Assembly (NCBI GenBank): GCA_031375105.1
Contig: JANMHJ010000040.1
Coordinates: forward strand, 37,798 to 101,797
DNA from: Variovorax sp.
GTDB lineage: Bacteria > Pseudomonadota > Gammaproteobacteria > Burkholderiales > Burkholderiaceae_C
DNA: 64,000 nt
Direction: 5' to 3'
Part shown: positions 50,052 to 62,933 of the stretch, in pieces
How positions within the stretch are numbered: position 1 is the stretch's first letter
Layout of the letters: each line of letters begins with the position of its first letter
Notes under the pieces: generated by a model
Databases searched by the model: none
What the model saw: the letters and a program-made list of their open reading frames with translations, nothing else
What the model was told of the DNA's origin: nothing
Translations under genes and position numbers: made by a program

Positions 50052-50816
50052 ATGACCCAAGATTTGTTTCGCCAAGATGCCTATTTGAGCGAATGCAGCG
50101 CCACTGTGCTGGCCGTCACTGAGCAGGGGGTGATTCTGGATCGCACCGTGTTTTATCCGCTTGGCGGCGGGCAGGCGGGAGATGCGGGCTGGCTGGTGTT
50201 GCCCGATGGCCACGAGCTGGTGGTGAGCGATACGCGCAAAGCCAAGGATGCTACGGGGTTGCCCACAACAGATATTTTGCATGTTTTGGCTCCTGAGCAT
50301 CTACAAATCCTACATAGTTTGCTATTAAATTCAGAGCAGACAGGCGCTGCGATACAACTCACCGCTCGCATCGACTGGCCGCGCCGCTATTCGCTGATGC
50401 GCTTTCACACCACTACACATCTGCTGTGTCATCTCGTGCCCCAGCTTGTCAACGGCTGCTCGATCACGGCTGATTACGCACGGCTGGATTTCAACATGAC
50501 CGAGCCGTTAGACAAAGAGCTGCTGAGCGCCGGCATCGCCCAGCTCGTGCAAGCCGCGCATCCCGTCACTTTGAGCAGCATCACTGATGAAGAGCTCGAT
50601 GCCAACCCCGCCCTCGTCAAAAGCATGAGCGTTAGCCCCCCGCGCGGTAGCGGCGTGATCCGCACGATTCGCGTGGGATCCAAGCAACTGATTGACCTGC
50701 AACCCTGCGGCGGCACACATGTGGCCAACACGTCTGAGATTGGCGATGTGCGCGTGATCAAAATTGAGAAAAAATCCGCCACGACGCGGCGAGTGGTGTT
50801 AGGATTTTGCCCATGA
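50052..50816 (+). CDS. alaX: Alanyl-tRNA editing protein AlaX-M (Ser-tRNA(Ala) deacylase)
   Basis: tRNA_SAD-type editing domain with HxxxH (FHTTTHLLCHLV) and CxxxH (CGGTHV) zinc motifs. Confidence 0.8.
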   Translation: MTQDLFRQDAYLSECSATVLAVTEQGVILDRTVFYPLGGGQAGDAGWLVLPDGHELVVSDTRKAKDATGLPTTDILHVLAPEHLQILHSLLLNSEQTGAAIQLTARIDWPRRYSLMRFHTTTHLLCHLVPQLVNGCSITADYARLDFNMTEPLDKELLSAGIAQLVQAAHPVTLSSITDEELDANPALVKSMSVSPPRGSGVIRTIRVGSKQLIDLQPCGGTHVANTSEIGDVRVIKIEKKSATTRRVVLGFCP

Positions 50817-60474: not shown

Positions 60475-60548
60475 AGTTTGGAACAGGAGTCGAACCTGCG
60501 ACAGACGATTTATCAGATCGTTGCTCTTACCAACTGAGCTATCCAGTG
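60475..60548 (-). pseudogene. Degenerate tRNA-Ile(GAT)-like gene (acceptor stem disrupted; no CCA)
   Basis: Canonical D-arm (TAGCTCAGTTGGTAAGAGC), anticodon arm (ACGAT-CTGATAA-ATCGT) and T-arm (GCAGG-TTCGACT-CCTGT). Only 4 of 7 acceptor pairs form (5' CACTGGA vs 3' TCCAAAC). The 5' end overlaps the CCA of the upstream minihelix by 2 nt. Confidence 0.4.
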
Positions 60549-60600
60549 GTGGTCATGGCGGGACTCGAACCCGCGCCTTACGGCACACCATGTCATGACC
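60547..60600 (-). other. tRNA-like minihelix (acceptor stem, T-arm and GNRA hairpin; no D or anticodon arm), CCA encoded
   Basis: GGTCATG-ACATGGTGT-GCC GTAA GGC-GCGGG TTCGAGT CCCGC-CATGACC-A-CCA. Perfect 7-bp acceptor stem, canonical T-arm, and a GTAA tetraloop hairpin in place of the anticodon arm. Confidence 0.3.
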
Positions 60601-60730: not shown

Positions 60731-60759
60731 GCGGTTGAACTAGTGCTTAGTTCAACCGC
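60731..60759. terminator. Perfect 12-bp-stem hairpin at the 3' end of the array-embedded HNH gene (terminator or processing site)
   Basis: GCGGTTGAACTA-gtgct-TAGTTCAACCGC. The HNH stop codon lies in the loop. Followed on the + strand by GATCCTTTT. Confidence 0.4.
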
Positions 60760-62195: not shown

Positions 62196-62239
62196 AAAAA
62201 AGACAACAAAAAAGCCCGATCTCGTTTCCAAGACCGGGC
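62196..62239 (-). terminator. Orphan Rho-independent terminator on the minus strand, upstream of the tRNA-array promoter region
   Basis: Minus strand reads GCCCGGTCTTGGAAACGAGATCGGGC followed by TTTTTTGTTGTCTTTTTT. No convincing minus-strand ORF lies upstream of it. Confidence 0.5.
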
Positions 62240-62537
62240 CTACAGAGGTAGGTGAAGACGGTACGTGAGTTACACGTGACCCTCGCCCGGTGGGGCTGAA
62301 TAATCCAATGCCTTCGGCTCAAAGCCTAGGCGCGAGCTATGCATGACATTCAGCCGCGCACAGCCACACCAAGCCTGAGCGGCTAAGCGTGTGGGGGATG
62401 CGATACGGTTAAACATATGAAGCTCTTGAAAAAATTAAAATGCAGAAAACTGCGATAGAACGTAATGTAAAGACTCTTTACTGGATCGTCAACATCTGCG
62501 ACAATTATTTTTTGATTTCGTTGCGAATTTTCAACAC

Positions 62538-62933
62538 ATGCAAGACTTTTCCGTCAACGCCACAGTTGTGCGCCGCACCAATCTCAATATGCTTTTGCAT
62601 GAGTTTGTGAAAACCCGCATCGCGCAAGGTGCAGCGCCCAAAGGCTTGGAGCAGGAGTTTGCGCAGCAAATACAAATCTCCCCCAGTATGCTCAGCCAAA
62701 TCAAAAGCTCACGCCCGATTGGTGACAAGCTCGCGCGGCAAATTGAGGTGCTCTGCGGCTTGGCGGCACATTGGCTGGATGAGACGCAAGCTGTGGCAGA
62801 AGATTTGCCCAATGAGGCGGAAGATCACATCGCGGATTTGGCGCGCCAAGCTTGGCGGCAATGCAATGCCGAACAGAAACGCGAGCTGCGCTTGCATTTG
62901 CGTGCCTTGGCGCAGCCAGAAAAGAAAGCCTAA
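62538..62933 (+). CDS. XRE/Cro-type helix-turn-helix DNA-binding protein
   Basis: …EFAQQIQISPSMLSQIKSSRPIGDKLARQIEVLCGLAAHWLDE… is an HTH_XRE-like motif. Preceded by an AT-rich promoter region. Confidence 0.55.
   Translation: MQDFSVNATVVRRTNLNMLLHEFVKTRIAQGAAPKGLEQEFAQQIQISPSMLSQIKSSRPIGDKLARQIEVLCGLAAHWLDETQAVAEDLPNEAEDHIADLARQAWRQCNAEQKRELRLHLRALAQPEKKA

Follow-up and report, generated by a model that had tools for sequence, protein, structure and literature searches.

The tRNA-like tandem described here lies upstream of the genes for a slipin and the RNA ligase RtcB in Variovorax sp. It was found in a stretch of 64,000 nucleotides (nt) of contig JANMHJ010000040.1 (assembly GCA_031375105.1, positions 37,798 to 101,797 of the forward strand), and this whole stretch is referred to as the window. 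All elements of the tandem, the RNA that surrounds it and the slipin and RtcB genes are on the minus strand of the window, which is the strand of every position given below unless the plus strand is named. In order, the locus comprises an array of seven tRNA genes (Leu, Pro, Glu, Asp, Ser, Arg and His; 61918-61352), several of which are atypical; a gene for a 190-amino acid HNH endonuclease (Pfam HNH_5; 61319-60747), which sits between the array and the RNA; the tandem itself; a gene for a slipin, a Band-7 (SPFH) protein of 377 amino acids (60168-59035; Pfam Band_7, 8e-30); and the RtcB gene (59018-57750; Pfam RtcB, 2.6e-127), which is followed on the same strand by a DUF2726 gene. The initial annotation had placed the tandem at the distal end of the tRNA array. 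It is indeed found beyond that end, but it is not contiguous with the array, as the HNH gene and a structured segment of 124 nt lie between them.

The first module of the tandem is an acceptor/T-arm minihelix of 54 nt that ends in ACCA (60600-60547). Its sequence is GGUCAUG-ACAUGGUGU-GCC-GUAA-GGC-GCGGG-UUCGAGU-CCCGC-CAUGACC-A-CCA. The acceptor stem, GGUCAUG/CAUGACC, consists of seven Watson-Crick pairs, and within it are a linker containing GG, a GNRA hairpin closed by 3 base pairs (bp; GCC-GUAA-GGC) and a T-arm (GCGGG-UUCGAGU-CCCGC); the discriminator A and CCA follow. The perfect stem, T-arm, GTAA hairpin and A-CCA that had been described for this element are therefore all present, and the minimum free energy fold is exactly this structure (-23.8 kcal/mol, z = -2.4).

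The second module is a tRNA-like cloverleaf (60546-60476), identified with ARAGORN and the Rfam tRNA model, which starts one nucleotide after the minihelix. ARAGORN calls it tRNA-Ile(GAT) at 60476-60547. The Rfam tRNA model matches it with 52.8 bits, restricted to model positions 4-67. In canonical tRNA numbering, positions 1 and 2 of the cloverleaf are CA, the final two bases of the minihelix CCA, which is the overlap of 2 nt noted previously. The closing helix has four pairs, UGGA/UCCA, and no CCA follows, in agreement with the earlier description of an Ile-like gene from which three acceptor pairs and the CCA are missing. The D and T arms are canonical and the anticodon loop is variable. 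An optional third module, an anticodon-stem-loop mimic with the sequence UUUGGU CUGAAAA GCCAAG, comes next (60475-60457).

To see how widely this arrangement occurs, the slipin was used as an anchor. This protein has thousands of close relatives, and an alignment of 18 of them was used to retrieve 80 loci, each from a different species; one Burkholderia locus was added to give 81. All of the retrieved loci are from Burkholderiales (Acidovorax, Ramlibacter, Rubrivivax, Aquabacterium, Roseateles, Ideonella, Ottowia, Delftia, Caldimonas and others), and their slipins are 69-79% identical. The RNA is always directly upstream of the slipin gene. Nearly every locus with enough upstream sequence has the same tandem, namely an N-CCA minihelix, one to a few bases and a short-stemmed cloverleaf. 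A covariance model of the tandem, made from 25 sequences with the structure taken from the window copy, places it at the syntenic site in 73 of the 81 loci, 250-400 nt upstream of slipin and in at least 15 Burkholderiales genera. The window copy scores 135.8 bits and those of the 72 other genomes score 65-145 bits. Ordinary adjacent tRNA pairs in arrays score 33-59 bits with the same model, with one at 72.5. The tandem is far beyond chance resemblance.

Base pairing is maintained across these loci while the sequence changes. In the 73-locus alignment, which was fitted to the covariance model, 95.8% of paired cells can pair, compared with 76% after shuffling and 40-47% when the partners are slid by one to three columns, and 25 of the 33 pairs of the tandem show double-sided changes. 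Further support came from plain MAFFT alignment with RNAalifold: both T arms, the D arm and the closing helix of the cloverleaf emerge again, independently of the model and with compensatory changes. All seven acceptor pairs of the minihelix covary across the 73 loci (one pair, for example, is AU in 16, UA in 15, GC in 14 and CG in 10). A complement search that uses no model finds five to seven acceptor pairs, mostly six or seven, of differing sequence in every locus. In the cloverleaf, compensatory changes are present in all five anticodon-stem pairs and in three of the five T-stem pairs; the D stem is invariant, and the closing helix consists of a nearly invariant UGG/CCA and one covarying pair.

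The modules also differ in what they keep. Of the 73 loci, 56 have N-CCA after the minihelix and 65 have N-CC, with the discriminator being A in 42, while the adjoining stem sequence turns over freely. The GG dinucleotide of the minihelix linker is retained in 70 of 73 loci, at the place where docking of a D-loop analogue on the T loop would be expected, and the T loops of both modules are of the UUCGANU type. On the other hand, the anticodon loop of the cloverleaf is 7 nt long in 48 loci, where it displays 21 different triplets, and is replaced in approximately 23 by a GNRA tetraloop or another short loop. As the anticodon position holds 21 triplets or tetraloops, the cloverleaf is not a decoding tRNA. 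A functional tRNA-Ile was rejected on these grounds and because the element has four acceptor pairs only and lacks CCA. These two shortcomings of its acceptor end are traits of the whole family and not local decay. The third module is found in about 19 of 73 loci, including the window, as an isolated stem of 5-6 bp with a 7-nt loop; its stems covary, and the loop has U at position 2 in 18 of 19 and a purine at position 6 in 16 of 19.

Two side observations concern these loops and helices. Near-identical cloverleafs of close relatives (loci L021, L024, L026 and L030) differ at the wobble position of the "anticodon", being UGU, AGU, UGU and CGU, respectively, and the loops of their third modules also differ (ACG, ACC, GCG and ACC). 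Separately, the junction of the two modules reads CCA-Y-UGG (window 60541-60550 and 60476-60482; alignment columns 101-122 with 184-187), and in the closing helix a 5'-UGGN pairs with N'CCA-3', almost without variation. The same pairing scheme is used by the discriminator bulge of the T-box with the 3' end of tRNA; this may be a coincidence.

The conservation bears directly on the first explanation given for this element, in which a decayed tRNA-Ile gene and what is left of a neighboring tRNA are the functionless trace of a recombination event or of an attachment site. Such an origin has some appeal: the two modules plausibly derive from two tightly packed tRNA genes, as phage arrays and the two full cloverleafs of Photobacterium (see below) illustrate, and some array tRNAs of the window are atypical too. 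As an account of the present element, however, it is almost certainly wrong. The tandem is shared by 73 species, and each helix that varies does so with compensatory changes. It also occurs in loci without any tRNA array, and its position relative to slipin is fixed. The initial annotation proposed that comparison with related genomes would reveal what had been lost. That comparison instead shows the same short stem and missing CCA in the relatives, with compensatory changes that maintain all helices, so that conservation of the same arrangement, which the annotation itself had named as the outcome that would speak against decay, is what was observed. The attachment-site version fares no better, as the distance from slipin is fixed in 73 species and no integrase was found among the open reading frames (ORFs) checked in the 44-64 kb part of the window, in a test that included no direct-repeat search for a second copy. 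We are thus highly confident that the tandem is a selected, structured RNA domain of the slipin/RtcB system and not a decayed gene.

A phage origin of the tandem was also considered and rejected. An exact-pattern scan of viral contigs gave ordinary phage tRNA arrays alone, in which tRNAs abut at a spacer of 0-1 nt, and the window flanks are chromosomal housekeeping genes. The abutting tRNAs of such arrays may nevertheless show what the ancestor of the tandem looked like.

The tandem is not isolated, as it is embedded in a covarying RNA of approximately 520 nt that extends from about 60724 to 60205, reaching up to the Shine-Dalgarno region of slipin. The 5' domain of 124 nt (60724-60601) carries the motifs AACAGGUCAGGGG...CCGCCGGUGCGC...CGUAUGCCGC, and its outer helix closes just before the minihelix. 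When 43 loci were aligned with MAFFT and analyzed with RNAalifold, this domain was found to contain 31 pairs, of which 24 show compensatory changes. Downstream of the tandem is a GNRA hairpin, GGUCGCAAGACC (60446-60435), in which GGUCGNAAGACC is near-invariant in 39 of 39 aligned loci. This is followed by a 3' domain of approximately 230 nt (60432-60205), which includes a CCGCCGAACG hairpin and a long-range helix joining UCAGCG to GCUGUAACGGCACC. RNAalifold analysis of 39 loci gives 40 pairs for this domain, with 33 of them compensatory. It ends approximately 25-35 nt ahead of the slipin Shine-Dalgarno sequence. In Rfam 15, no family was found for the flanking domains in the window or in four other loci. 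No sigma-70 promoter or intrinsic terminator was found on the minus strand between the HNH gene and slipin.

The surroundings of the RNA fall into two types. In the window type, the RNA comes after an HNH gene; this arrangement is present in 41 of 81 loci, often with an array of 3-14 tRNAs ahead, and arrays of at least three tRNAs are upstream in 28 of 81. In most of the 41 carriers, the HNH gene is approximately 1.05-1.25 kb upstream of slipin. In the RtcR type, a divergent rtcR gene precedes the RNA (27 of 81 loci), and rtcA is often further downstream. A sigma-54 promoter, TGGCAC-N5-TGCA, is located just before the 5' domain in 24 of these 27 loci, and the domain starts approximately 10-25 nt past it. 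Consensus sites include L041 (3425-3445), L001, L015, L052, L062, L070, L071, L072, L075 and L080. In L041, the order is divergent RtcR, then slipin, RtcB, an unassigned ORF of 312 amino acids and RtcA. Except in L015, the HNH gene never occurs together with the RtcR-type promoter arrangement. RtcB is downstream of slipin in 62 of 81 loci, and many of the others are on contigs that end early. The RtcR type is a classical Rtc operon with the RNA and slipin in the place where Salmonella has rsr, yrlB and yrlA.

A guide RNA of the HEARO/IscB type for the neighboring HNH protein was considered and set aside, as Rfam gave no match and loci that lack HNH retain the RNA. The best NCBIfam matches of the HNH domain are the HNH domains of Cas9d and IscB, far under the cut-offs.

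The two locus types also bear on the idea that the modules are processing punctuation only. Here, they would be cut signals of the RNase P/RNase Z type that part the tRNA-array/HNH transcript, or the 5' end, from the slipin-RtcB mRNA, much as tRNA-like elements do in other polycistronic RNAs. In the minihelix, the 7-bp acceptor stem, T-arm and 3' RCCA provide the classical determinants of RNase P. Where the locus is of the window type, this module is placed between an upstream transcription unit and the coding genes, and mascRNA, a processed tRNA-like element, is a weak Rfam match. Yet RtcR-type loci have nothing upstream to separate and keep the modules all the same, and punctuation needs neither approximately 350 nt of additional covarying structure nor a canonical D-arm or second module. 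We regard it as improbable that punctuation is the whole of the function.

Distant relatives were found when slipin was used in tblastn searches of plasmid and chromid records. In Photobacterium (slipin identity 41%; L084 3665-3806), a sigma-54 promoter and the 5'-domain motifs are followed by two tandem cloverleafs: the first has a 7-bp acceptor stem, a D arm and no CCA, and the second has a closing helix of 4 bp. In Subdoligranulum, a member of the Firmicutes (slipin 34%; L085 3639-3696), a 5'-domain motif precedes two bare T-arm hairpins 7 nt apart. In E. coli (L082 3690-4000) and Citrobacter (L083 3680-4000), where slipin is 53% identical, an RNA with a single T-arm hairpin is followed by slipin and a nucleotidyltransferase, with rtcR and/or a sigma-54 promoter ahead of the RNA. 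With the E. coli copy as query, 1629 of 5426 complete E. coli genomes (about 30%) were found to contain 80% or more of the region, which carries no annotation; a megablast of the Citrobacter RNA against E. coli gave no match. No RtcB is present at the E. coli and Citrobacter slipin loci. As these loci keep the RNA and slipin without RtcB, the RNA tracks slipin rather than RtcB. From these comparisons, the universal part is T-loop hairpins on a 5'/3' scaffold, and the CCA minihelix is the shape that the first tRNA-like module takes in Burkholderiales, where it is most simply explained as a reduced cloverleaf.

An RNA of this kind has been predicted before. In 2016, Burroughs and Aravind proposed a tRNA-like RNA beside Band-7 and RtcB genes; in a later account, this b7a-tRNA is an unvalidated prediction, strongly resembles authentic tRNA and is a proposed RNA cofactor analogous to YrlA (10.1101/312249). 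The window cloverleaf matches it in position and form: it adjoins slipin, RtcB follows, and the same holds in 73 related loci. It also passes the test of strong likeness to authentic tRNA, with an ARAGORN call, the Rfam score given above and variable arms that covary. The abstract of the 2016 paper reportedly describes SPFH/Band-7 modules with "a novel tRNA-like molecule". In the literature searches made, the term b7a-tRNA was found in one paper only. There are also differences. The second-hand account mentions a single tRNA-like RNA, whereas here the closing helix is truncated and there is no CCA; in Burkholderiales, a CCA minihelix precedes the cloverleaf, an anticodon-stem-loop mimic often follows it and a covarying RNA of approximately 520 nt surrounds them all. 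The element is thus of the b7a-tRNA kind, so far only computationally predicted, and its composite architecture and large scaffold, which are absent from Rfam, appear to go beyond the accessible literature.

The closest characterized analogue is YrlA (RF02553), although the present RNA is not a YrlA. Both are tRNA-mimicking RNAs with canonical T and D arms, encoded in an RtcB operon under RtcR/sigma-54 control beside a putative scaffold protein, and the position of this RNA corresponds to that of YrlA/YrlB in the Salmonella rsr-yrlBA-rtcBA operon. The Rfam model even aligns the T-arm of the minihelix, a 16-nt spacer and the D-arm of the cloverleaf in YrlA order, but it scores 30.2 bits, below the gathering score of 69. 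The YrlA fold is a single tRNA-like one, circularly permuted and joined to a stem that binds Ro60, whereas here there are two unpermuted modules with acceptor-type helices of their own. In addition, the partner gene here is slipin and not Ro60/Rsr, and no TROVE/Rsr gene was found among the neighbors (slipin, RtcB, HNH and DUF2726). A permuted fold of the YrlA kind, made from the minihelix T-arm and cloverleaf D-arm, was tried and rejected: only a 3-bp CCA/UGG could close it, and covariation backs the two separate helices.

Likeness to other tRNA-like RNAs is more limited. With the tRNA-like domain of transfer-messenger RNA (tmRNA) and with minihelix substrates, the first module shares the 7-bp acceptor stem, GG D-loop analogue, T-arm and ACCA, and the Rfam tmRNA models align both ends. 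However, it has neither an mRNA-like region nor pseudoknots; 328 model positions are replaced by 8 nt, the scores are 23-31.6 against a gathering score of 47, and G3-U70 is not conserved (position 3-70 is CG in 26, UA in 18 and GC in 13). Both tmRNA and its two-piece form (RF00023 and the permuted RF04321) were rejected, as the ends alone align, the score is under the gathering threshold and ARAGORN finds no tmRNA. Elements of the mascRNA/MALAT1 type are similarly small tRNA-like folds without a true anticodon arm inside a longer transcript, and they are excised by RNase P and then given CCA. They are a eukaryotic family, however; the match of 30.3 bits is under the gathering score of 42.5, and the CCA here is genomically encoded.

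The gene set itself also has a precedent. In cyanobacteria, as described for Anabaena, translational stress induces a long tRNA array, HNH, rtcB and a slipin gene together (PMC8421152; PMC10272220). The window has the same set in one cluster on one strand. The papers cited make no mention of a structured RNA or a mimic of tRNA ahead of slipin, and regulation also differs: there, TrcR is the regulator, with the slipin gene in its regulon, whereas RtcR and sigma-54 are used in the RtcR-type loci here.

These comparisons suggest, with somewhat better than even confidence, that the tandem is the tRNA-mimicking core of one RNA of approximately 520 nt that is transcribed as the 5' part of a slipin-RtcB repair operon and is the partner of slipin. 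The partnership is proposed with moderate confidence, by analogy with Ro60 and Y RNA and following the 2016 prediction. The RNA would be made when the operon is switched on: in RtcR-type loci through RtcR and sigma-54, and in window-type loci together with the tRNA array and HNH gene. Its T-loop/D-loop elbows and CCA acceptor helix would mimic tRNA to the proteins that handle tRNA, such as RNase P, the CCA-adding enzyme, modification enzymes and RtcB. The RNA may then be a subunit of, or a scaffold for, a slipin particle acting together with RtcB, in the way that YrlA works with Ro60/Rsr in the Salmonella rsr-yrlBA-rtcBA operon.

Processing would be part of this scheme. In M. smegmatis, RNase P cleaves YrlA in a 7-bp acceptor-like stem and CCA is gained in vivo, which the authors suggest protects against exonucleases (PMC4201824). 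None of the classical RNase P determinants is missing from the minihelix, which makes a cut at its 5' side likely. By cutting the 5' side of one or both modules, RNase P could release a minihelix of approximately 54 nt with an exonuclease-resistant (N)CCA end, as for M. smegmatis YrlA. A cut at the canonical +1 of the cloverleaf would fall within the CCA, and the CCA-adding enzyme could repair the end. The evidence also fits the other possibility raised in the initial annotation, a purposely made tRNA-like fragment such as a minihelix substrate or decoy, which is close to the reading favored here.

Several points weigh against this reading of the RNA as a processed partner of slipin. The CCA is missing in 17 of 73 loci and, within Burkholderiales, the minihelix is missing in L022 and L069 and the cloverleaf in L079. 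Outside this order the CCA minihelix is not universal, given the Photobacterium cloverleaf without CCA, the bare T-arms of Subdoligranulum and the one T-arm of E. coli, and therefore the specific CCA end cannot be essential to the system in general. The closing helix of the cloverleaf (3-5 bp) is a poor RNase P substrate. The match to b7a-tRNA is with a second-hand description of that prediction. Finally, the RNA is physically a 5' leader and may act purely in cis.

This last point is the starting place of an alternative in which the RNA is a cis-acting sentinel leader. Its mimics of tRNA parts (the CCA acceptor helix, the cloverleaf and the anticodon stem-loop) would be substrates for anticodon nucleases, contact-dependent inhibition (CDI) and colicin tRNases and VapC-type toxins, so that cutting and re-ligation by RtcB tune the stability or translation of the slipin-RtcB mRNA. 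As an added option, cleavage could yield fragments with 2',3'-cyclic phosphates that feed back on RtcR. The leader is continuous with the coding region and offers tRNases three kinds of target. Even close relatives have different anticodon triplets, while the U33- and R37-like positions are kept. Consistent with the feedback, two reports describe activation of RtcR by tRNA fragments with cyclic-phosphate ends (PMC7790460; PMC11090510). Against this, approximately 23 of 73 loci have a GNRA tetraloop or short loop, which is no target for an anticodon nuclease, and only about one locus in four has the third stem-loop. The large conserved 5' and 3' domains are left unexplained, and the Shine-Dalgarno region is outside the conserved structure. 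On this balance, the cis-acting leader is unlikely.

A more speculative proposal, which we consider a long shot, goes further: the RNA of approximately 520 nt would be an undescribed class of large structured bacterial RNA whose conserved scaffold presents parts of tRNA, namely a CCA-tailed acceptor/T minihelix, a cloverleaf without an acceptor and a free anticodon stem-loop. It would act as a damage sentinel or bait, with tRNA-targeting toxins cutting the mimics and a slipin-RNA particle sensing and resealing them with RtcB. If so, attack by tRNases would be coupled directly to the output of the repair operon, and the fast-changing "anticodons" would reflect an arms race with anticodon nucleases.

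Whichever function holds for the RNA, its presence has consequences. Gene finders call the cloverleaf a tRNA (Ile here; Met, Thr, Val, Lys, Phe, Glu and others elsewhere), so that tRNA gene sets are inflated and distorted. Many RtcB repair operons of Burkholderiales have a large structured RNA where Salmonella has Y RNAs, which speaks for tRNA-mimicking RNAs as a general part of bacterial RNA repair, paired with different scaffolds, Ro60 or slipin. The organisms that carry it are concrete, tractable systems for testing the role of such RNAs, and the CCA encoded where the modules meet allows RNase P processing to be predicted precisely and tested.

The remaining observations concern the neighboring genes. 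The slipin has no evident membrane segment in its 377 amino acids. An AlphaFold model, built to seek an RNA-binding N-terminal domain, had a mean predicted local distance difference test (pLDDT) score of 52.5, which is too poor for a structure search. A hairpin spans the HNH stop codon (GCGGUUGAAC/GUUCAACCGC; window 60731-60759), and it covaries, being GCGCCUGAGC/GCUCAGGCGC elsewhere.

Within the tRNA array, tRNA-Leu(CAG) of 77 nt and tRNA-Ser(CGA) of 76 nt both lack the long class II variable arm; the Leu genes of arrays in other loci are 84-87 nt long. The tRNA-Ser gene has no CCA, the T loops of tRNA-Glu and tRNA-Pro are non-canonical (AUCGAUA and AUCGAAG, respectively), and the D stems of tRNA-Leu and tRNA-Glu are 3 bp long. 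Upstream of the array is a terminator-like hairpin with a T run (62212-62241), which suggests that the array starts a new transcription unit. Divergent from the array is an ORF of 131 amino acids on the plus strand (62538-62933) with no match in Pfam or NCBIfam. The other window genes examined are ordinary chromosomal ones, namely AceE, DsbD, a peroxiredoxin, an ABC transporter and an AlaX-like protein. The last is a free-standing tRNA editing protein (tRNA_SAD plus an alanyl-tRNA synthetase fragment), which is encoded on the plus strand at 50052-50816, 10 kb from the repair locus.

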